Positions 21,544 through 47,000 of a DNA stretch of 48,915 nt are shown in pieces. The first letter of the stretch is position 1, and every line of letters begins with the position of its first letter. The notes under the pieces were generated by a model. It saw only the letters and a program-made list of their open reading frames with translations. It was not told the DNA's origin and searched no databases. The stretch is from Clostridia bacterium. GTDB taxonomy: Bacteria; Bacillota; Clostridia; Oscillospirales; CAG-272. A program made the translations under genes and the position numbers. Location: assembly GCA_017463815.1 (NCBI GenBank), contig JAFTOK010000072.1, positions 1-48,915 on the forward strand, in the 5' to 3' direction.

Positions 21544-21659
21544 AATCGCCAAAGCGATTTTCTTCCTTAACCCGCCGCAGGCGGATTTCACCGACGCCCC
21601 GCGTTGATTTCATATTGCGAAGCAATATTTCACATTTTGCGTCACGCAAAATATTTCAC
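21544..21659. repeat. Tandem array of 5 short GC hairpins, each followed by ATTTCA(C/T) (~21 nt period)
   Basis: AATCGC/GCGATT, CCGCC/GGCGG+ATTTCAC, CGACGC/GCGTTG+ATTTCAT, ATTGC/GCAAT+ATTTCAC, TTTTGCG/CGCAAAA+ATTTCAC. Confidence 0.5.
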
Positions 21660-21667
21660 CGTGCAGA

Positions 21668-23789: not shown

Positions 23790-23865
23790 AATAATACCTC
23801 TCATTCAGGGGATTTTTGTCTATTTTTCGCAAAAGCAGTTGTGCGTTATGCAAAAAACTCCTTCC

Positions 23866-23927
23866 ACCATCTTCGATGGTCCCTCCCTCAAGAGGGAGGC
23901 TCAAATAATTCCCGTTCGCGAAGCGAA
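23866..23927. repeat. Partial copy (hairpins 3-4) of the multi-hairpin repeat family plus TTCGC-GAA-GCGAA hairpin
   Basis: ACCATC-TTC-GATGGT, CCTCCCT-CAAG-AGGGAGG and TTCGC-GAA-GCGAA. Confidence 0.45.
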
Positions 23928-26560: not shown

Positions 26561-26720
26561 TATTTTTGAGCAAAAAAATATAAATTTTTTGTATTTTTAT
26601 TTAATATTTTACCTTTTCCACCGCTCTGCCGCCCCACTCGGCACCCTGCACCACTTCGCACAAATCACGACAAGCCTTTTTGTGCAAACAAACAATTTTA
26701 GACAAATGTAGAAAATACTA

Positions 26721-28766: not shown

Positions 28767-28800
28767 AGGCTTCCCGCTTGGGAAGCCTTGTTTTTGTTTT
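28767..28800. terminator. Bidirectional terminator between convergent genes
   Basis: AGGCTTCCC-GCTT-GGGAAGCCT followed by a T-rich run. The hairpin resembles the terminal hairpins of the repeat family. Confidence 0.6.
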
Positions 28801-29592: not shown

Positions 29593-29740
29593 AAACACGT
29601 ATCCTTTAAATCGTTTTAGGATATAATATGACAAAATGTGCGCAGACGTGAGGAAACTATTATAAAGGCTCTCACTTGGGGGAGGTGGCATTTGCGAAGT
29701 TTTACGGAGCAAATGACGGAGAGGGTTTCCGTCACACAAA

Positions 29741-39014: not shown

Positions 39015-39048
39015 TCGGCAGGGAGATTGTCTTCTCTGCCGATTTGTG
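39015..39048 (+). terminator. Hairpin terminator after ridA
   Basis: TCGGCAG...CTGCCGA stem followed by a T-rich tail. Confidence 0.5.
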
Positions 39049-39069
39049 TTATAATGGAGTTAACAAAAG

Positions 39070-39187
39070 CCTCCCTTGTGTAAAGGGAGGTGCCGAGCGA
39101 ATGCGAGGCAGAGGGATTGTAACGGCAGAAGATAGCGAAAAACAATCCCTCAGTCGCTACCGCGACAGCTCCCTTTGCACAAGGGAG
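39070..39187. repeat. Multi-hairpin dyad repeat, divergent copy A
   Basis: CCTCCCTT-GTGT-AAGGGAGG; central stem GAGGGATTGT/ACAATCCCTC; GTCGC-TACC-GCGAC; GCTCCCTTT-GCAC-AAGGGAGC. Confidence 0.5.
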
Positions 39188-39365
39188 CCTTTGGACACGC
39201 TTGTGCATCTTTAGTGGTATTGGCTTTGCCCGAAGCGTTTGTTATACAAATGCGAAATCGGCGATAAAACGGAACGGTAAACTTGAATTTGTAGGGATGG
39301 TGTTTATGAAAAGATTTATATCATTGATACCTACTCGTAAGAAAATAATTTTGAAGGAGAACACG

Positions 39366-39899
39366 ATGATAAAAGTTAAAATAATAGACAGTGCTCGAAA
39401 AGATGACATCAACATCAAGAATCATCCATTCAAGCTGTTCGGGCTGATGCTACCGTCCTATAATAACGGCAAATGGGATCATACAGAGATTGTTTTTCCA
39501 CCCGAAAACCATACTGAAATGCGCTTTCCCGATGAGAATTACGATTACGACAAAATGAAAGATGAGCATATTTTCATCGGAGCATACGATGGAGAACAAT
39601 GTATCGGGCTTGCAATTATGCGAGATGATTTTTTCAAATATATGTATCTGTACGACTTGAAAGTGAACTCTGCATATCGCAGCAAAGGTGTCGGTGCTAT
39701 GCTTATTGATAAGTGCAAAGAAGTAGCCGTTGAACAGGGCTATCGCGGTATCTATACGCAGGGGCAAGACAATAACCTCGGTGCGTGCAAATTCTATCTT
39801 AAATGTGGCTTTGAAATTGGCGGTATTAACACTCACGTTTATAATGGCACACCACAAGAAAATAAGAAGGATATTTTCTTTTACATAGATGCCGAATGA
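39366..39899 (+). CDS. GNAT N-acetyltransferase, streptothricin acetyltransferase (Sat)-like
   Basis: 177 aa. PFKLFGLMLPSYNNGKWDHTE and TQGQDNNLGACKFYLKCGFEIGGINTHVY resemble my recollection of Sat4/SatA. AAGGAGA RBS. ~38-40% GC by eye. Confidence 0.65.
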   Translation: MIKVKIIDSARKDDINIKNHPFKLFGLMLPSYNNGKWDHTEIVFPPENHTEMRFPDENYDYDKMKDEHIFIGAYDGEQCIGLAIMRDDFFKYMYLYDLKVNSAYRSKGVGAMLIDKCKEVAVEQGYRGIYTQGQDNNLGACKFYLKCGFEIGGINTHVYNGTPQENKKDIFFYIDAE

Positions 39900-39911
39900 G
39901 GATAGCTATTT

Positions 39912-40457
39912 ATGAAGTATGATAACAAAACAATCAAATTAAAAAACGGACAATCGGCAATTTTAAGAGCGCCAAGTGCGAATGATGCAGCCGAGCTGAT
40001 TGCCTATATGAAAACCGTTTTTGGTGAAACGGACTTTCTGATGCGTTATCCCGAAGAGTTTGAAATGAGCGTGGAGGATGAGGCAAAAATCCTTGAGGGG
40101 TTGGAAAGTTCCGAAACAAGCCTAATGATATGCTGCGAAGCAGACGGAAAGCTTGTCGGCAACTGTCAGCTCAGCTTCAACCAAAGAATTAAAACTGCCC
40201 ATCGCGCAACCATTGCAATTTCCGTGTTAAAGGACTATTGGGGACAAGGTATAGGTACGGCTCTGTTTGAAGAAATGATTAAGGTTTCCAAAGATAAGGG
40301 TGTCTTGCAAATGGAGCTTGAATTTGTAGAGGGCAACGAGCGTGCCAAAAGGCTTTATGAAAAAATAGGATTCGCTGTCGTTGCCGAAAAGCCGAATGCC
40401 ATTCGGCTGAAAGACGGAACGATGCTCAAAGAGTATTTTATGGTGAAATATTTATAA
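39912..40457 (+). CDS. GNAT-family N-acetyltransferase
   Basis: Acetyl-CoA motif WGQGIGTALFEEMI...ERAKRLYEKIGF. Low GC. Confidence 0.75.
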   Translation: MKYDNKTIKLKNGQSAILRAPSANDAAELIAYMKTVFGETDFLMRYPEEFEMSVEDEAKILEGLESSETSLMICCEADGKLVGNCQLSFNQRIKTAHRATIAISVLKDYWGQGIGTALFEEMIKVSKDKGVLQMELEFVEGNERAKRLYEKIGFAVVAEKPNAIRLKDGTMLKEYFMVKYL

Positions 40458-40503
40458 TTATGCTTATCGTCAAATTCCAATTTATCGAACAGAATAAACA
40501 CAA

Positions 40504-40540
40504 CCCCGACAGACCTTGAAAATCTGTCGGGGTTTTATAT
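40504..40540 (+). terminator. Intrinsic terminator after GNAT pair
   Basis: 10 bp stem CCCCGACAGA/TCTGTCGGGG followed by TTTT. Confidence 0.65.
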
Positions 40541-40560
40541 TTGTTTACTGCATAAAAAAA

Positions 40561-40674
40561 GCCTTCTCCTGCGGGAGAAGGGGGACCGCGAAGCGGTGGA
40601 TGAGGAGTTGCTTTGATTTTGGAACACCTCATCCGTCAGCCTTCGGTTGCCACCTTCCCCCGCTGGGGAAGGCT
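40561..40674. repeat. Multi-hairpin dyad repeat, copy B
   Basis: CCTTCTCC-TGCG-GGAGAAGG; ACCGC-GAA-GCGGT; GGATGAGG...CCTCATCC; CAGCC-TTC-GGTTG; CCTTCCCC-CGCT-GGGGAAGG. Confidence 0.7.
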
Positions 40675-40792
40675 ATTCAATTTTACCGCTAATTTTGCAG
40701 ATTCTTAGGCGCTCTTTTTTGCCCTACCAAGTGCCTTGCACTTTTGATATGATATTTCAAAAATCCTCGCCAAAGCGAGGATTTTTCACTTT

Positions 40793-41716
40793 TTACACAA
40801 GCAAAACCATAACGGGAATGGTAAGCACCGAAAGCATCGTGCCCAGCAACATAAGGTTTGCCGCCGTTTCTTGCCCTTCGCCGAGCATTTCGGCAAAGTT
40901 CAGCACCACGCTCGCTACGGGGCAAGCTACCATAATGTAAACAGAGGTTTTCAGGTTTTCATCCACGGGGAAAAGGCGCAAAAGCAGAAGCGCTATGAGC
41001 GGCAGAACAAGCTGCTTTGCCGCGATGATAAGATATTGCACCGGCACGGCAAAAACCTTTTTCACGCTCATCGTGGCAAGGCGCATACCCATTATCAGCA
41101 TACAGAGCGGCGTTGTCATACGCGCGAGCAGGGCGAGCATATCGCCAAGCTCCGCTGGCAAAGCCACACCCGTAACAAACAGCGGTATAGCCACCAGAAG
41201 CGAAAGCACCGCAGGGTTGAGCGCTATTTTTTTCACGCTCATATACTTCGGGTTGTTCGTTATAATCGCAGAGCCGAGTGTCCAGCCGAGAATGTTCATA
41301 ACGAGCGAAAACATCGCGGAAAACGCCACCGCCTGCGGGTAATCGGGCAAAAGCGCCTCTAAAACGGGCACACCCATAAACGCACAGTTGGAAAAGCAAA
41401 GGGAAAGCGTGTATACGCGGTAGCGCACGTCCTCGATTTTCTTGCGAAAAAGGAAACGGAACGTGAGAAGCACCGTCACCATAAGCACGAGCACGAAGAA
41501 GAATACAAAAAGCATATCCGCAACCATACGGAGCGAAAATTCCACGCGCGAGAAAGAATAAATTATAAGTGCAGGCGAGCAAACGTACATAAGCAGTTTT
41601 GCAAAAGCGGAAATAGCGTCGCCTTTAACAAGCCCACTTTTCACCATAAGAAAACCCGGGCAAGCATACAGAAGCATAACCGCCACGGTGGAAAGAGCGA
41701 TAAAAAAACTGCCCAC
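40793..41716 (-). CDS. AEC (auxin efflux carrier) family transporter
   Basis: ~10 TM segments with the typical two-half membrane-transport architecture. Start set to a GTG 7 nt after AGGAAG. Confidence 0.75.
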   Translation of the reverse strand: MGSFFIALSTVAVMLLYACPGFLMVKSGLVKGDAISAFAKLLMYVCSPALIIYSFSRVEFSLRMVADMLFVFFFVLVLMVTVLLTFRFLFRKKIEDVRYRVYTLSLCFSNCAFMGVPVLEALLPDYPQAVAFSAMFSLVMNILGWTLGSAIITNNPKYMSVKKIALNPAVLSLLVAIPLFVTGVALPAELGDMLALLARMTTPLCMLIMGMRLATMSVKKVFAVPVQYLIIAAKQLVLPLIALLLLRLFPVDENLKTSVYIMVACPVASVVLNFAEMLGEGQETAANLMLLGTMLSVLTIPVMVLLV

Positions 41717-41872
41717 AAAAACACTTCCTTTCAAAAATATATCCGAACAATAATATAGCACAAATGCCGCATACTTTCAAGAATTTTTTAAAAAATCCTA
41801 TATATTGCATATTTCTGCCGCAACCTTAATATATTTTTGCTATGAACAAAAAATATTTGGGAGGAAACAAAA

Positions 41873-43345
41873 ATGAGCAATATTTACCGCGACATCGCCA
41901 CCCGTACCGCGGGGGATATTTACATAGGCGTGGTTGGGCCCGTACGCACGGGCAAATCCACCTTTATCAAAAAATTTATGGAAACGGTCATCGTGCCGAA
42001 TATCAAGGGCGATTATGACAAAAAAAGAGCCAAAGACGAAATGCCCCAATCTGCCGCGGGCAAAACCGTTATGACAACAGAACCGAAGTTCATCCCCGAC
42101 GAGGCAGTTACGGTAACGCTCGACGGAGGCGAGGAATTTTCCTGCAAAATGATAGATTGCGTGGGCTACATCGTGCCCGAAGCGCTCGGCAACTACGAAA
42201 ACGGCGAGCTGCGTATGGTTATGACGCCGTGGTCCGACGAGCCGATGGCTTTTGACCGCGCGGCGGAAATCGGCACGGAAAAGGTTATCCGCGAACACGC
42301 GACAATCGGTGTGCTCGTTACTTGCGACGGCACGTTCGGCGACATTCCGCGCGCAAACTACGAAGCGGCGGAGGCGCGTGTGGCAAGCGAGCTCCACGAA
42401 ATAAACAAACCGTTTGTTGTGGTGCTCAACTCCGCGCACCCCGAAAGCGCAGAGGCTGTAAACCTCGCTCTGGAGCTCGAAAAACGCTACAAAGCGCCCG
42501 TTGCGCTCGTAAACTGCCTGGAGCTTGACAAAGAGGACATCGGGCACATTTTAGAGCTTGTGCTTATGGAGTTCCCCGTTTGCGAAATCCGCGTGGAGCT
42601 GCCGAACTTCATCGCCTCGCTCGACCGCTCGCACCCCGTTTACAAAAGTATGCTCGCGCAGGTAGTGGAATGTGCGGGAAACATCAAGGTGACGGGCGAT
42701 ATAGGCACGTGTTTTGCCTCTGCCACGGAAAACGAGCACATTAAAAACACGTACGTTTCGCGCCTCGACCTCGGCACAGGCAAAGCAGAAATCGCCGTGA
42801 GCGCCGCCGACGGGCTTTTCTACCGCCTTATAAGCGACGTAGCAGGCACGGAAATAACAGACGATGCTTCGCTTATGTCCACAATAGCGCAGTTTGCGGG
42901 CGCAAAACGCAAATACGATAAAGTTGCGGCGGCTATAGACGAGGTGAACAGCACGGGTTACGGCATTGTGGTGCCCGAAATCTACGACCTCAAGCTCGAA
43001 GAACCCGAAATCGTGAAAAAAAGCGGCGGCTACGGCGTTCAGCTTCGCGCGTCCGCGCCATCCATTCATATGATAAAGGCAGACATAAAAACGGAAGTTT
43101 CGCCGATTGTGGGCACGGAGGCGCAATCGGAAGAGCTTGTGAACTTCCTCTTGCGCGAGTTTGAAACCGACCCTCAGCGAATTTGGGAAACGAATATGCT
43201 CGGCAAATCGCTCTACGAGCTTGTAAACGAGGGCTTGCACGCAAAACTTTCTCATATGCCCGACGATGCGCGCGCTCGCCTTTCGGAAACGCTCCAACGT
43301 GTAATCAACGAGGGCGCAGGCGGGCTTGTGTGTATTATTCTTTAG
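41873..43345 (+). CDS. spoIVA: Stage IV sporulation protein A (spore coat morphogenetic ATPase)
   Basis: MSNIYRDIATRTAGDIYIGVVGPVRTGKSTFIKKFM (Walker A) and full-length similarity. RBS GGGAGG. Confidence 0.95.
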   Translation: MSNIYRDIATRTAGDIYIGVVGPVRTGKSTFIKKFMETVIVPNIKGDYDKKRAKDEMPQSAAGKTVMTTEPKFIPDEAVTVTLDGGEEFSCKMIDCVGYIVPEALGNYENGELRMVMTPWSDEPMAFDRAAEIGTEKVIREHATIGVLVTCDGTFGDIPRANYEAAEARVASELHEINKPFVVVLNSAHPESAEAVNLALELEKRYKAPVALVNCLELDKEDIGHILELVLMEFPVCEIRVELPNFIASLDRSHPVYKSMLAQVVECAGNIKVTGDIGTCFASATENEHIKNTYVSRLDLGTGKAEIAVSAADGLFYRLISDVAGTEITDDASLMSTIAQFAGAKRKYDKVAAAIDEVNSTGYGIVVPEIYDLKLEEPEIVKKSGGYGVQLRASAPSIHMIKADIKTEVSPIVGTEAQSEELVNFLLREFETDPQRIWETNMLGKSLYELVNEGLHAKLSHMPDDARARLSETLQRVINEGAGGLVCIIL

Positions 43346-43354
43346 AGTGGCTCG

Positions 43355-43486
43355 CCTTCCCCTCGAGGGGAAGGTGGCACGCCTCGCGTGACGGATGAGG
43401 TGTAGCCGTCCGCAGACGGCGTTATCTCAAAAAATCAAAGACACCTCATCAGTCCCTTATGGGACAGCTTCCCCTCAAGGGGAAGC
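43355..43486. repeat. Multi-hairpin dyad repeat, copy C
   Basis: CCTTCCCC-TCGA-GGGGAAGG; CACGC-CTC-GCGTG; GGATGAGGTG...CACCTCATC, with an inner GCCGTC-CGCA-GACGGC; GTCCC-TTAT-GGGAC; GCTTCCCC-TCAA-GGGGAAGC. Confidence 0.7.
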
Positions 43487-43595
43487 CCAAAAGGCGCCAC
43501 CCATACAAAAATCCCCACGCATTCGCTTATTTAAAAAAGTTTACATCTATTAGTTGTAAATTAACCACTTTTCAAAAATATCCGTTATCATATAT

Positions 43596-43616
43596 ATAAG
43601 AAATCTAATTTCTTAT
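43596..43616. promoter_or_regulatory. Perfect palindrome ATAAGAAAT-CTA-ATTTCTTAT upstream of the HTH gene (candidate operator)
   Basis: 9 bp arms read directly from the sequence. 28 nt upstream of the ATG. Confidence 0.35.
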
Positions 43617-43644
43617 ACTAAATATAATTAACGGAGAAAAAACA

Positions 43645-43899
43645 ATGTCAAACGAAGAAATCATCGAAAGAATACGCATTCGCAAGGAAAATTTTGTTCA
43701 TAACGTGATATGGTTACGCAAATATTACTGTATACCCAAAAAAAGAATGGCAGAACTTTTGGGAATATGCGTTTCAAGCTGGAATAAAATCGAAAAAGGT
43801 ATATTTCCCGGAAAAATGACTTCAAATATCGTAATAAACATTTGCGAAAATTTCCGCGTTACTTCCGATTCTCTTTTCGAGAAACGATTTGGGGAATAA
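43645..43899 (+). CDS. Small XRE-like HTH protein (84 aa)
   Basis: PKKRMAELLGICVSSWNKIEKG is an HTH-like segment. GGAG RBS, low GC, own terminator. Confidence 0.6.
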   Translation: MSNEEIIERIRIRKENFVHNVIWLRKYYCIPKKRMAELLGICVSSWNKIEKGIFPGKMTSNIVINICENFRVTSDSLFEKRFGE

Positions 43900-43909
43900 A
43901 CTTGCCGAC

Positions 43910-43938
43910 AAAAAAACGCACCTGCGGGTGCGTTTTTT
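43910..43938 (+). terminator. Intrinsic terminator
   Basis: CGCACC-TGCG-GGTGCG followed by T6, preceded by an A-run. Confidence 0.7.
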
Positions 43939-44011
43939 CTCGTTCTAGTGTGTTGATAAAGTCGGTTCAAAATTTTTCTTTCGGCAATTTAGACAAAAGT
44001 AATTATTAGTA

Positions 44012-44126
44012 GCCTTCCCCAGCGGGGGAAGGTGGCAGCCGAAGGCTGACGGATGAGGTGTTTTTAGGCAGAACTTACTCCTCATCCACCGTCTGCGACG
44101 GTCCCTCTTCTCCCACAGGAGAAGGC
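44012..44126. repeat. Multi-hairpin dyad repeat, copy D
   Basis: CCTTCCCC-AGCG-GGGGAAGG; CAGCC-GAA-GGCTG; GGATGAGG...CCTCATCC; CCGTC-TGC-GACGG; TCTTCTCC-CACA-GGAGAAGG. Confidence 0.7.
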
Positions 44127-44180
44127 TTAACCTGTTAATTTTTTATTTTCTGATTTTTTACACGGCTTTTTCTTTTTGCG

Positions 44181-46692: not shown

Positions 46693-46799
46693 TGTTCCCT
46701 CTTTCCGAACGCGCACGCGTTCTTTGTAAAATTATCTTTACTTATTATTTTACCATATAATTCAAAACTTTACAACAAGCAAATTGAAAAGCTTCAGGG

Positions 46800-46969
46800 T
46801 TTTTGAATGAGTTAATAAAATATGAACAAAGTCAAATCAAGCAATAAAAAATCCGGTTTAGTTGGCCTTCCCCTAGCATCAGCGATAGGGGAAGCCCATC
46901 AAGTCAGTTTTTGCCCAAAACAATCAATACAAAAATGTCGTGTTCATAAATTGTTTACTCATTCAAAAA
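46800..46969. repeat. MITE-like unit: 28 bp imperfect terminal inverted repeats flanking ~114 bp
   Basis: TTTTTGAATGAGTTAATAAAATATGAAC (46800-46827) against the reverse complement of 46942-46969, 24/28 identical. The interior carries the GGCCTTCCCC...GGGGAAGCCC hairpin. Confidence 0.45.
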
Positions 46970-47000
46970 CCGTGTGGAAAGTTTTAAGACGAGATTTTAC

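Follow-up and report, generated by a model that had tools for sequence, protein, structure and literature searches.

Hairpin-rich intergenic repeats of gut Clostridia as probable miniature relatives of a DUF559 gene cassette

Among catalogued repeats, the closest relatives of those described here are the BoxC/PIT/TMECO elements, known from E. coli and further Proteobacteria (Bachellier et al.; Hoyne and Maher; Holder et al. 2015, PMC4666352). Like our units, a TMECO unit consists of a pyrimidine-rich arm, a short loop, the complementary purine arm and then a G/A-rich block; both groups are intergenic, show no strand bias, frequently form inverted pairs of two unlike types, vary in presence between strains and have hitherto been without known function or mobility gene. 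In the tests of Maher and co-workers, as far as they are related in PMC4666352, the E. coli elements had no promoter or terminator activity, and the published BoxC/TMECO work (PMC4666352) reports no associated mobility gene and does not mention DUF559. More loosely related are the CGTC-tagged REPs (Di Nocera, De Gregorio and Rocco 2013, PMC3733652), which, as here, are mostly head-to-head dimers with heterodimers common. They lack a dedicated transposase, are frequent in Alphaproteobacteria and are unreported in Firmicutes (PMC3733652).

The repeats of the REP/BIME/REPIN-RAYT type (PMC3116915, PMC2817692, PMC5581495) resemble ours in being short GC-rich palindromic units, lone or in head-to-head doublets able to form a long hairpin, in occurring in many copies per genome, in flanking a single-copy, vertically inherited gene under purifying selection and in the likely recognition of the units as folded single strands. 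Bacterial MITEs (Correia, RUP, BOX, ERIC; PMC3184786) are likewise small, non-coding, structured elements with inverted termini, dispersed between genes and plausibly descended from, or dependent on, a coding parent element. Furthermore, selfish, site-specific nucleases with the fold encountered below have a precedent in the Vsr-like homing endonuclease I-Bth0305I (PMC3239194).

We analysed a window of 48,915 nucleotides from a Clostridia bacterium, in which an initial annotation had described a family of dyad-symmetric intergenic repeats. The four full copies, A to D, are present at the sites it had given (Table 1), translation of the repeats does yield the spurious PSPxGEG-type peptides it had mentioned, and the family is a genuine interspersed structured one, very abundant in gut Clostridia. 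An exact pattern with 22 specified bases was found at at least 119 genome loci, mostly in Clostridia and also in Negativicutes and Hyphomicrobiales. With a model of the half unit (see below), 874 kb of element loci and window yielded 231 units, whereas 570 kb of unrelated Clostridia control loci gave none (nhmmer) or 2 weak units (covariance model, CM); the repeat is thus present far beyond chance. The repeats had been left without a named family, which agrees with the absence of any Rfam match, even at E<=10, but overlooks the BoxC/PIT/TMECO and CGTC-tagged relatives.

Although the whole dyad had been taken as the repeat, the actual unit is a half of about 50 nt, in which a terminal hairpin (CCTTCCCC/GGGGAAGG) is followed by a small hairpin whose loop is G-N-A and then by a head, GGATGAGG. 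As in REP doublets, a full copy consists of two halves placed head to head, here of unlike subtype (alpha and gamma in B and D, alpha and beta in C). The five-helix layout was recovered as proposed, the long-range central stem GGATGAGG..CCTCATCC being flanked on each side by a small hairpin and, outermost, a terminal hairpin. The 3-nt small-hairpin loop had been exemplified by GAA, which does occur, but read from the outer end to the centre the loops follow G-N-A and include others; G-N-A was found in 128 of 205 units and the complementary loop about once. The small-hairpin loops are of the C-GNA-G type, which is known to give very stable DNA minihairpins. The two strands are equivalent in fold, as had been noticed, but the unit has an orientation, and B and D run in opposite directions, as reverse complements of each other (inverted repeats I1 and I6, arms 91-93% complementary).

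When compared with dinucleotide shuffles, copies A to D folded with z values of -4.6 to -10.1, and 0 of 200 shuffles were as good. The stems covary strongly: pairing was 92.6% (76.0% in shuffles), double-sided changes numbered 175 (55 in shuffles) and the covariation score was 0.435, a value reached by 0 of 500 shuffles (0.175 in shuffles); slid controls gave at most 0.094. The small hairpin of the alpha half occurred in 90 distinct sequences, 92% Watson-Crick paired versus 55% in the control, with G.T wobbles and A.C mismatches in a ratio of 12:2; this sense-strand wobble suggests recognition as a single strand. The extension of the central stem also covaries (110 of 210 paired, versus 71±6 with permuted partners). 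Half units are solitary in about 58% of cases; pairs within 200 nt comprise 49 head-to-head, 12 tail-to-tail and 10 tandem arrangements. Central-spacer lengths cluster at 19-22 nt, and in the alpha-gamma subfamily the length is fixed and the sequence variable, the spacer of D being as long as those of B and of five other loci (L013, L022, L046, L060, L113).

Table 1. Repeat units and related features in the window
Feature	Coordinates	Strand	Evidence or description
Copy A	39068..39190	+	full head-to-head doublet, divergent subfamily
Copy A, halves	39068-39114; 39148-39190	+; -	
Copy B	40560..40674		
Copy B, gamma-type half	40560..40605	+	CM 42 bits, E 1e-10
Copy B, central spacer	40606..40626	.	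sequence
Copy B, alpha-type half	40627..40674	-	CM 57.4 bits
Copy C	43353..43488		
Copy C, alpha-type half	43353..43400	+	CM 60.5 bits
Copy C, central-stem extension and 37-nt variable loop	43401..43443	.	sequence, fold
Copy C, beta-type half	43444..43488	-	CM 46.8 bits; partner-half typing
Copy D	44011..44127		
Copy D, alpha-type half	44011..44058	+	CM 62.2 bits, E 7.6e-17
Copy D, central spacer	44059..44079	.	15 nt between GAGGTGT and ACTCCTC
Copy D, gamma-type half	44080..44127	-	CM 33.7 bits, E 3e-8
Lone gamma-like half	23860..23901	-	sequence; CM E 0.037
Lone diverged alpha-like half	29666..29724	+	CM 20.1 bits, E 3.9e-4
Solo terminal-type hairpin	46864..46897	.	GGCCTTCCCCTA..TAGGGGAAGCC, long loop

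Copy A has terminal hairpins CCTCCCTT/AAGGGAGG and a central stem GAGGGATTG/CAATCCCTC, in which GAGGGATTG is the head; it folds with z values of -10.1 and -7.5, coincides with an inverted repeat (I8, 87% complementary) and matches the CM weakly (E 1 and 0.31). The gamma half of copy B reads CCTTCTCC-TGCG-GGAGAAGG, ACCGC-GAA-GCGGT and head GGATGAGG, and its alpha half, on the minus strand, GCCTTCCCC-AGCG-GGGGAAGG TGGCA-ACC-GAA-GGC-TGAC GGATGAGG. In copy C, the variable loop contains a small hairpin of its own (GCCGTC-CGCA-GACGGC) and the minus-strand reading of the beta half is GGCTTCCCC-TTGA-GGGGAAGC TGTC-CC-ATAA-GG-GAC TGATGAGG. The copies were said to lie usually just after a stop codon; this is the case only for C, which begins 9 nt past that of spoIVA (ORF 41873-43345, Pfam SpoIVA), while about 100 nt and a canonical terminator separate A, B and D from the stop. 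In the terminator scan, that of ridA (39015-39042) precedes A, and B has one on either side (40502-40535 and 40759-40786).

Several observations concern the dispersal of the units. Metagenome contigs break at each copy, where word depth rises from 6-9 in the flanks to 340-1900. Relatives whose SpoIVA is 86-88% identical have no copy C downstream of spoIVA, and more distant relatives hold simple terminators at this site. A search for target-site duplications found none, only a conserved aAAG ahead of the terminal hairpin. According to gene-context statistics based on crude ORF calls, lone halves are oriented 16:11 relative to flanking genes, thus without bias, units are slightly in excess in convergent regions (28% vs 21% background), divergent regions are not depleted, and no association with promoters was seen.

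The units can be told apart from each of the described systems. The 3-nt second loop of TMECO is replaced by a 17-25-nt linker forming its own covarying G-N-A hairpin, the arms are of 8 rather than 9 nt and differ in sequence, the block is GGGTGAGGG in TMECO versus the head GGATGAGG here, and the hosts are mainly Clostridia rather than E. coli and other Proteobacteria; compatibility of the head with a TMECO-style triplex is weakly above shuffles. A dimer in Bosea (L230) joins a canonical TMECO-type unit head to head with one unit of the present family, the third TMECO block acting as head, and in E. coli a distance of 168 nt separates BoxC/TMECO no. 9 from ycjD, a DUF559 gene. With the CGTC-tagged REPs, the alpha half, whose reverse complement is CCTCATC-CGTC-A[stem-loop-stem]T-GCCA, shares the CGTC tag, the A-T first stem pair, a CCA-containing tail and Alphaproteobacteria as a host group. 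However, our stem has 4-7 bp instead of 8-9 and a second pair other than A-T, our loop 3-4 nt instead of 4-5, AGTC or CACC takes the place of CGTC in the beta and gamma halves, and a terminal hairpin and head block are added. In comparison with REPs, the GTAG tag is absent and the unit comprises two hairpins and a head (about 50 nt) instead of one 20-40-nt palindrome.

Among the 119 element loci, DUF559 is the only gene family met repeatedly beside the repeats: in 4 of them a DUF559 ORF directly adjoins units; this was so in none of 80 control loci. When contexts were picked by protein homology alone (L200, L210, L220, L221, L222, L223, L228 and L229, representing 7 independent insertion sites), units flanked the DUF559 ORF on both sides in all 8. 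In most contexts the head, GGATGAGGTG, is the gene's Shine-Dalgarno sequence, the start codon lying 3-7 nt past GAGGTG or GAGGCG in L220, L221, L222, L223 and L229. At the other end, C-terminal tails encoded by the antisense unit (TSS...PSPQGEG) occur in 81 of 120 homologues. In Hyphomicrobiales (L089), the DUF559 gene lies within a full alpha-alpha' element. Since taxa as distant as Clostridia and Hyphomicrobiales both use the head as ribosome-binding site and the partner unit as coding sequence for the C-terminus, gene and repeats have probably long co-evolved as one unit. In two cassettes (L210 and L029), the units are placed tail-first toward the gene. Comparison of the orthologous L220 and L229 showed single units cleanly present or absent, and the gene between their units is under purifying selection (dN/dS 0.10). 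The cassette protein matches the solved DUF559 protein 3HRL (E 1e-14), and both belong to the superfamily of I-Bth0305I, which is intron-encoded in a phage gene without flanking structured repeats; the DUF559 proteins here are putative nucleases.

We therefore read the repeats of the window, where neither a DUF559 gene nor a remnant was found, as miniature, ORF-less members of a family that, at full length, is a small DUF559 gene cassette, with a probability of about 55%. The cassette is a gene of about 120 codons for a Vsr-like PD-(D/E)xK endonuclease, set between two inverted structured units of about 50 nt; the upstream head provides its Shine-Dalgarno sequence, the downstream unit its final codons and stop, and the gene occupies the place that the variable central loop has in the copies of 115-130 nt. 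Short ORF-less copies and lone halves, scattered among housekeeping genes, would probably be non-autonomous relatives, comparable to a REPIN and its RAYT or a MITE and its parent. The units may fold as single-stranded DNA hairpins, possibly with an intrastrand triplex as in BoxC/TMECO, and their folded ends would be recognised and nicked by the DUF559 nuclease, host repair or replication then copying or moving them in trans. PD-(D/E)xK nucleases are not known to form a covalent intermediate, and the copying step therefore has to be assumed. As the central loops of short copies contain no recognisable ORF remnant, internal deletion is only a putative origin; the opposite history, with the gene entering a doublet that already existed, is an equally good fit. 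Such a cassette would differ from REPIN-RAYT in its PD-(D/E)xK nuclease in place of a Y1 HUH transposase and in units overlapping the ribosome-binding site and C-terminal codons, and from MITEs in the absence of target-site duplication, in a candidate parent encoding no DDE or other known transposase and in half units that are stable alone. An orphan class of bacterial palindromic repeats, that of the E. coli BoxC/TMECO relatives, hereby gains a candidate partner enzyme.

Could the nuclease instead be a free-standing homing enzyme for which the doublet of an older, independent palindromic family (REP- or BoxC-like, host or selfish) is the homing site, its ORF having entered the central loop of some copies? 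A homing endonuclease with the Vsr/DUF559 fold has been proven (I-Bth0305I; PMC3239194; PMC3424549), the central loop is precisely where the ORF is found in L089, L200 and L220-L223, and the remnant-free short loops and the single cassette per locus beside many ORF-less copies would be understood. We nevertheless consider this unlikely: a homing gene that finds hundreds of identical targets in a genome is expected to occupy many of them, whereas the observed contexts are single, species-stable and under purifying selection; the junctions shared from Clostridia to Hyphomicrobiales imply co-evolution, and the arrival of ORF-less units at new intergenic sites is left unexplained. A role as host cis-elements (bidirectional terminators, stabilisers of mRNA 3' ends, or nucleoid or topoisomerase sites as proposed for REP/BIME), with an incidental DUF559 link, is more doubtful still. 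CTTT(T) follows each terminal hairpin read outward, the outer hairpins of A and B resemble terminators on the minus strand in the scan, C occupies the place of a plain terminator in relatives and the convergent excess points the same way; yet A and B already have canonical terminators beside them, no T-run is present at the relevant ends of C and D, the orientation of lone halves and the divergent regions show no corresponding bias, the related E. coli elements were inactive in the tests cited via PMC4666352, and an incidental link cannot account for conserved junctions in 8 of 8 contexts.

Movement of the repeats, as REPINs or PATE-like elements, by a Y1 single-strand transposase of the IS200/RAYT type appears very improbable. 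Head-to-head doublets, lone units and vertical persistence mirror REPIN-RAYT (PMC3116915; PMC5581495), the wobble suggests single-strand recognition and the L220 cassette has a Y1_Tnp gene 2.8 kb away; however, the ends of that gene bear no units or other repeats, Y1_Tnp does not recur among the 119 loci, and a separate palindrome family in these genomes, which does carry the GTAG tag missing here, is the natural RAYT partner. Hardly any weight is given to a structured non-coding RNA with a multi-helix junction, whether small RNA or cis-regulatory element, toward which the initial annotation leaned with its cloverleaf or four-way junction. Strong predicted folds, covarying helices and a central stem pairing a Shine-Dalgarno-like with an anti-Shine-Dalgarno-like sequence would suit it, but catalogued RNAs give no match, the strands fold alike, promoter association and orientation bias are lacking (16:11), B is enclosed by terminators, most half units are solitary and the loops are of the DNA-minihairpin type.

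The isolated pieces in the window can also be classified. Of the fragments listed earlier, two are not copies: 28767-28800 looks like an ordinary intrinsic terminator, and at about 26610-26640 neither a hairpin nor a CM match was found. The hairpin at 46864-46897 is indeed a lone one of the terminal type, flanked by an unrelated 34-nt inverted repeat (I4), but had no match in the CM search and its relation to the family is only plausible, as a possible remnant. In contrast, the fragment at 23866-23899 corresponds to a true gamma-type half (23860-23901) with compensated stems, between pheA-like and aroB-like genes (Pfam of the flanking ORFs); its terminal hairpin is CCTCCCTC/GAGGGAGG and its small hairpin ACCATC-GAA-GATGGT. 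The alpha-like half at 29666-29724, absent from that list, reads GGCTCTCAC-TTG-GGGGAGG TGGCA-TTTGC..GCAAA-TGAC GGAGAGGG.

Direct reading of the four full repeat copies in the window (A to D) confirmed the repeat observation of the initial annotation, including its layout of five helices. In most units, the terminal hairpin is formed by CCTTCCCC, 3-4 nt and GGGGAAGG, with a stem of 8 nt. A doublet, in which two halves of ~50 nt stand head to head, runs in the order terminal hairpin, small hairpin, long-range stem GGATGAGG...CCTCATCC enclosing a variable loop, small hairpin and terminal hairpin. Compared with dinucleotide shuffles, copies A-D folded far more strongly on both strands (z -4.6 to -10.1). 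In the minimum-energy folds, the terminal palindromes frequently paired with each other and not each on itself. The two terminal hairpins of B and of D are unlike (CCCC/GGGG vs CTCC/GGAG) and the compensation is internal to each, which favours local hairpins. Alignment and a repeat finder revealed that B is the reverse complement of D, and the element is thus oriented. Copy A is a diverged relative with the layout common to B-D, in which the helices are different but compensated (GAGGGATTG/CAATCCCTC).

A covariance model of the half-unit matched all six halves of B, C and D and, weakly, the halves of A. A fragment suspected near 23866 proved to be a real lone half, and a diverged lone half that had been overlooked was added. 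By sequence reading and by the covariance-model scan, the sites proposed at 28767 and ~26610 were not copies. Two other features of the window were recorded. A 34-nt inverted repeat, 85% complementary, surrounds a solo terminal-type hairpin in the intergenic region past a phosphoglucomutase-like gene. Between C and D, an 84-aa ORF with its own canonical terminator had no Pfam match and no homologue in any fetched locus.

Coordinates of the repeat copies and of other features in the window and in fetched loci (L numbers)
Feature	Sequence	Position	Basis
Copy A	window	39068-39190	direct reading
Copy B	window	40560-40674	direct reading
Copy C	window	43353-43488	direct reading
Copy D	window	44011-44127	direct reading
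Lone half	window	23860-23901	half-unit covariance model
Diverged lone half	window	29666-29724	half-unit covariance model
Inverted repeat, two arms	window	46795-46828 and 46941-46974	
Solo terminal-type hairpin	window	46864-46897	
84-aa ORF	window	43645-43899 (+)	
Terminator of the 84-aa ORF	window	~43907-43935	
Stretch covered by metagenome contigs	window	43354-43487	
Gut-1 RNA (RF01706), full-length	window	21580-21661 (-)	Rfam
Three tandem 49-nt copies	L058	5395-5560	
Y1_Tnp gene	L220	6672-7211	
Hybrid dimer, Bosea sp. ANAM02	L230	2515-2660	
Stretch with ycjD (DUF559), E. coli K-12	L227, NC_000913.3	1351030-1351830	sequence

An exact-pattern scan (GGAAGGTGGC-N8-14-TGACGGATGAGG) of one genome per species matched at least 119 loci, compared with ~0.5 chance matches by our estimate. 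Most of the listed loci belong to gut and rumen Clostridia (Oscillospiraceae, Eubacteriales, Pseudoflavonifractor, Faecousia), and the remaining ones to Selenomonas, Schwartzia, bins labelled Dehalococcoidales and Hyphomicrobiales (Bosea, Roseiarcus). In the listed loci, a partner was present downstream within 400 nt for 54 of the 129 alpha halves and absent for 75. The partners are of types beta, gamma, delta, epsilon and alpha', and the plan from outside to centre is shared: terminal hairpin, small hairpin, (G)GATGAGG. The repeating unit is the half-element and not the whole dyad.

A first nhmmer model built on alpha halves alone missed the partner types, and a strict regex-and-hairpin finder was too narrow. 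With the covariance model of the half, ~296 units were detected in 825 kb of element loci, whereas unrelated Clostridia loci surrounding spoIVA (570 kb) gave 2 weak matches. The family is therefore confined to certain lineages yet very dense where found. Among 231 nhmmer units, the pairs within 200 nt were head-to-head in 49 cases, tail-to-tail in 12 and tandem in 10. Head-to-head pairs at this distance include 98 of the 231 units and mostly join two unlike types, alpha with beta, gamma, delta or epsilon.

Other arrangements were also seen. On contigs of three metagenome runs (X1-X3) covering copy C, the 3' end of one element was joined to the 5' start of the next through 21-22-nt spacers (for example TTTGTGCATGGGCAGGCGGTAA); their fixed length suggests tail-to-tail arrays, regularly spaced as in BIME clusters. 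In L058, three tandem copies, each starting with the head (GGATGAGGTGTCGCCGCGAAGCGGC...), are located between a gamma half and a DUF559 ORF. A second abundant palindrome, unrelated and GTAG-tagged (..GTAGGGGCG-N-CGCCCCTAC..), often occurs near units in L016, L075, L108, L116 and other Clostridia loci, and looks like a classical REP family.

The covariation check suggested by the initial annotation was carried out on a model-based alignment of 134 distinct units, and the stems were found to covary beyond every one of 500 shuffles. Paired cells amounted to 92.6% vs 76.0% in shuffles, double-sided changes to 175 vs 55, and the covariation score to 0.435 vs 0.175 (0/500), slid controls giving at most 0.094. 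In the small hairpin, compensatory changes were observed at all five modelled pairs. For alpha halves (90 distinct small-hairpin sequences), Watson-Crick pairing reached 92%, vs 55% when the arms were swapped between copies, with 12 G.T wobbles and 2 A.C mismatches; the terminal hairpin displayed 48 T.G wobbles on the sense strand. The structure is constrained, and on one strand. The central stem reaches 2-3 bp past GAGG/CCTC, and this extension covaries (110 of 210 paired vs 71±6 with permuted partners).

The loop of the small hairpin is G-N-A in 128 of 205 units (GAA 80, GTA 22, GCA 17, GGA 9), and the complements of these loops are nearly missing among the same units. C-GNA-G is reportedly the motif of the extraordinarily stable DNA minihairpins of Hirao, Yoshizawa and co-workers. 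The loops thus give a hint, rather than a proof, that the folded species may be single-stranded DNA. In BoxC/PIT/TMECO, the third block mirrors the purine arm (purine-motif intrastrand triplex). Scoring the purine arm of the units against the head for such a triplex was only weakly positive, with a mean of 6.5 valid triplets out of 8 vs 5.45 in shuffled or parallel controls (median empirical p 0.19); the gamma arm reached 8/8, and in A-type units arm and head covary at 7/8.

Analysis of the neighbouring genes demonstrated a physical and evolutionary link between the units and DUF559 genes. All-against-all clustering of the ORFs of the at least 119 element loci gave no recurrent neighbour, families being shared by at most 7 loci. 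Three ORFs located immediately beside elements were the exception; they formed a small cluster and matched Pfam DUF559 with E values of 1e-27 to 1e-32. A fourth DUF559 ORF lay within the central loop of a complete alpha-alpha' element of a Hyphomicrobiales contig (L089), the central stem of which is extended to ~28 bp. A DUF559 gene was present in 0 of 80 control loci, and a large-gene search between distant inverted units returned housekeeping genes only. The L029 protein has at least 8000 homologues at E<1e-10, many on very short contigs. In a reverse test, homologues were selected on protein similarity alone and their flanks were then fetched: the ORF was bracketed by units in all 8 look-ups, representing 7 independent insertion sites (among them groES|pepF, valS|Fe-ADH, truB|DUF6062 and tex|eamA).

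The units form the ends of the gene itself. Five cassettes (L220, L221, L222, L223 and L229) have a sense half with GGATGAGGTG at its end (GGATGAGGCG in L229) and the start codon 3-7 nt further on, so that the head is the Shine-Dalgarno sequence. The distance from head to start codon is ~45 nt in L200 and L228. The last codons and the stop of L200, L220, L221, L222 and L223 are within the antisense partner half (CACCTCATCC...), which accounts for repeat-encoded tails, such as HIS-TSS-TASGPPSPQGEG, at the end of 81 of 120 representative homologues. The PSPxGEG-type peptides of the window, regarded initially as spurious, are indeed repeat-encoded, and in DUF559 proteins they occur as real annotated C-termini. 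In L228 and L229, the downstream units are located beyond the stop codon and not across it, and in the L210 and L029 cassettes the units face the gene tail-first. The nearest solved structure to the cassette protein is the DUF559 protein 3HRL. At 2.8 kb from the L220 cassette, a Y1_Tnp (IS200/RAYT-type) gene occupies an operon-like position; neither units nor other repeats were found at its ends. Milman et al. found DUF559 proteins enriched among predicted inversion targets, which fits genes lying between inverted repeats.

The best-supported account of the window copies is that they would be REPIN-like elements without an ORF, belonging to a family that has the DUF559 nuclease cassette as its full form. 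The nuclease would recognise and mobilise the units, which may fold as single-stranded DNA. The main rival keeps the link and reverses the history, the DUF559 gene homing into pre-existing doublets. The orthologous loci L220 and L229 have the 5' half and the gene in common, individual units are cleanly present or absent, and the dN/dS of the gene is 0.10 at pS 0.455, which indicates that it is maintained and vertically inherited and is no decaying passenger. In the window, no DUF559 gene or remnant was detected, even at E<=50. A partial coverage of the literature yielded no paper linking DUF559, PF04480, ycjD or Vsr-like proteins to these repeats, which is absence of evidence only.

By contrast, the reading of the copies as RNA cloverleaves or four-way junctions, put forward in the initial annotation, was not supported. 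An Rfam search over the copies gave nothing at gathering scores and chance-level matches only at E<=10, and ARAGORN found no tRNA and no tmRNA. On crude ORF calls, which gave many spurious overlaps, the elements had no strong preference for a class of intergenic region, and the orientation of lone halves was not biased with respect to the direction of the genes (16:11). Copy A follows the ridA terminator and B is flanked by the canonical terminators of two convergent genes. These positions, together with the lack of class preference and of orientation bias, argue against a role at the transcript level. The source organism was found in a few gut metagenomes only and in no RNA runs. A hammerhead ribozyme, prompted by CTGATGAGG on the minus strand of C, was rejected for lack of a GAAA core and of an Rfam match. 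The sole Rfam match in the window is a Gut-1 RNA (51.9 bits, gathering score 50), which has no relation to the repeats.

REPIN-RAYT systems resemble the present family in their head-to-head doublets, which can fold into one long hairpin, their lone units and a single conserved flanked gene. However, REP/REPIN sequences are single palindromes of 20-40 nt with GTAG at one end and flank a RAYT (Y1_Tnp) gene, whereas the units have no GTAG, possess two hairpins and a head in ~50 nt, and flank DUF559 genes; membership in REPIN-RAYT fails on these points. Read as its reverse complement, the alpha half is CCTCATC-CGTC-A..T-GCCACC, with the CGTC tag and CCA tail of CGTC-tagged REPs, and it also resembles the REPs of Di Nocera et al. 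in the first stem pair, the dimer habit and the lack of a transposase. The tag of these REPs is CGTC (or TGTC/CCTC), whereas beta and gamma halves carry AGTC or CACC. Their stems are of 8-9 bp with A-T at pairs 1 and 2 and loops of 4-5 nt, against stems of 4-7 bp, A-T at the first pair alone and mostly 3-nt G-N-A loops in the units. No mobility gene was found for CGTC REPs (Di Nocera et al., PMC3733652). The units bear inverted termini, as MITEs do, but a MITE has as its parent an insertion sequence with a known transposase and the same termini, whereas DUF559 is the only gene found between the unit termini. With exact ends not set by filled/empty pairs, no target-site duplication was evident; a conserved aAAG is all that precedes the terminal hairpin.

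The nearest catalogued relative is BoxC/PIT/TMECO. Both have inverted pairs of two different types, and both begin with a C-rich stem (9 nt, 8 nt in the units), a first loop (3-6 nt) and a complementary G-rich stem. In BoxC/PIT/TMECO, a second loop of 3 nt (TTA or CCG) leads directly to a second G-rich block GGGNGAGGG, whereas in the units the purine arm is followed by a 17-25-nt linker, which forms a hairpin of its own, and only then by the head GGATGAGG. According to Holder et al. (PMC4666352), no mobility function has ever been found near TMECO. In E. coli K-12, the DUF559 gene ycjD is preceded by a hairpin CACCTCATTCTGACA...TGTCAGAATGAGGTG, whose 3' arm GAATGAGGTG holds the start codon, the annotated GTG being within GAGGTG; a CCCTCTCCC arm encodes the C-terminus (..SPSP), and the gene is followed by a duplicate of a 3' fragment. 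One of only 23 TMECO copies in 4.6 Mb, no. 9 of Holder et al., lies 168 nt downstream of ycjD; the chance of a TMECO within 200 nt is ~0.2% by our estimate. In Bosea sp. ANAM02, a hybrid dimer directly upstream of a DUF559 ORF sets a canonical TMECO/BoxC-type unit head to head with one of alpha' type. The TMECO third block GGGTGAGGGG is in the place of the head, and the annotated protein begins inside the repeat (MNRDRAPSPLAGEGWGEGS). Many alphaproteobacterial DUF559 proteins carry peptides such as PSPLAGEGWGEG at their start or end.

Catalogues of short palindromic repeats, among them REP, BoxC and the CGTC-tagged REPs, go back 30 years, and to our knowledge a partner enzyme (RAYT) is known for GTAG-type REPs only. 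The kind of element described here (REP/BoxC-like palindromic repeats) is known already; the unit anatomy, the host range and the partner gene are new. Tentatively, and with the odds somewhat against it (about one in three), DUF559 (YcjD-type, Vsr-like) nucleases might be the long-missing partner enzyme of a cross-phylum orphan superfamily of GC-rich palindromes, comprising the Clostridia units, BoxC/PIT/TMECO of Enterobacteria and Alphaproteobacteria and perhaps CGTC-tagged REPs. This would be a second vertically inherited REPIN-RAYT-like system, in which structured DNA units are maintained by a PD-(D/E)xK nuclease and not by a Y1 transposase. The units as conserved ends of DUF559 genes in Clostridia and Hyphomicrobiales, with the Bosea and E. 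coli cases, provide a concrete and directly testable candidate for the missing mobility gene, and a very large family of uncharacterised "endonuclease domain-containing proteins" gains a first functional context.

The copies of the window lie among housekeeping genes (a PALP enzyme, RidA, two GNATs, a membrane transporter, SpoIVA, DUF362 and phosphoglucomutase). For SpoIVA, a look-up by exact protein gave no match, and orthologous spoIVA loci were taken from a metagenome scan, in which synteny past spoIVA was already broken. Relatives with 86-88% identical SpoIVA had a downstream site without copy C or with a different subfamily member, and more distant ones had a plain terminator. Contigs of X1 and X2 gave no strain-level presence or absence, the "joints" stemming from other abundant organisms. 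Because the repeats seed spurious ORFs and false protein extensions (PSPxGEG tails), a repeat model improves annotation. In metagenomes with the organism at 6-9x, contigs ended at every copy and the summed word depth over the copies was 340-1900. The community therefore contains the units in very many copies, and in practice they are one reason why metagenome assemblies of gut Clostridia are fragmented.
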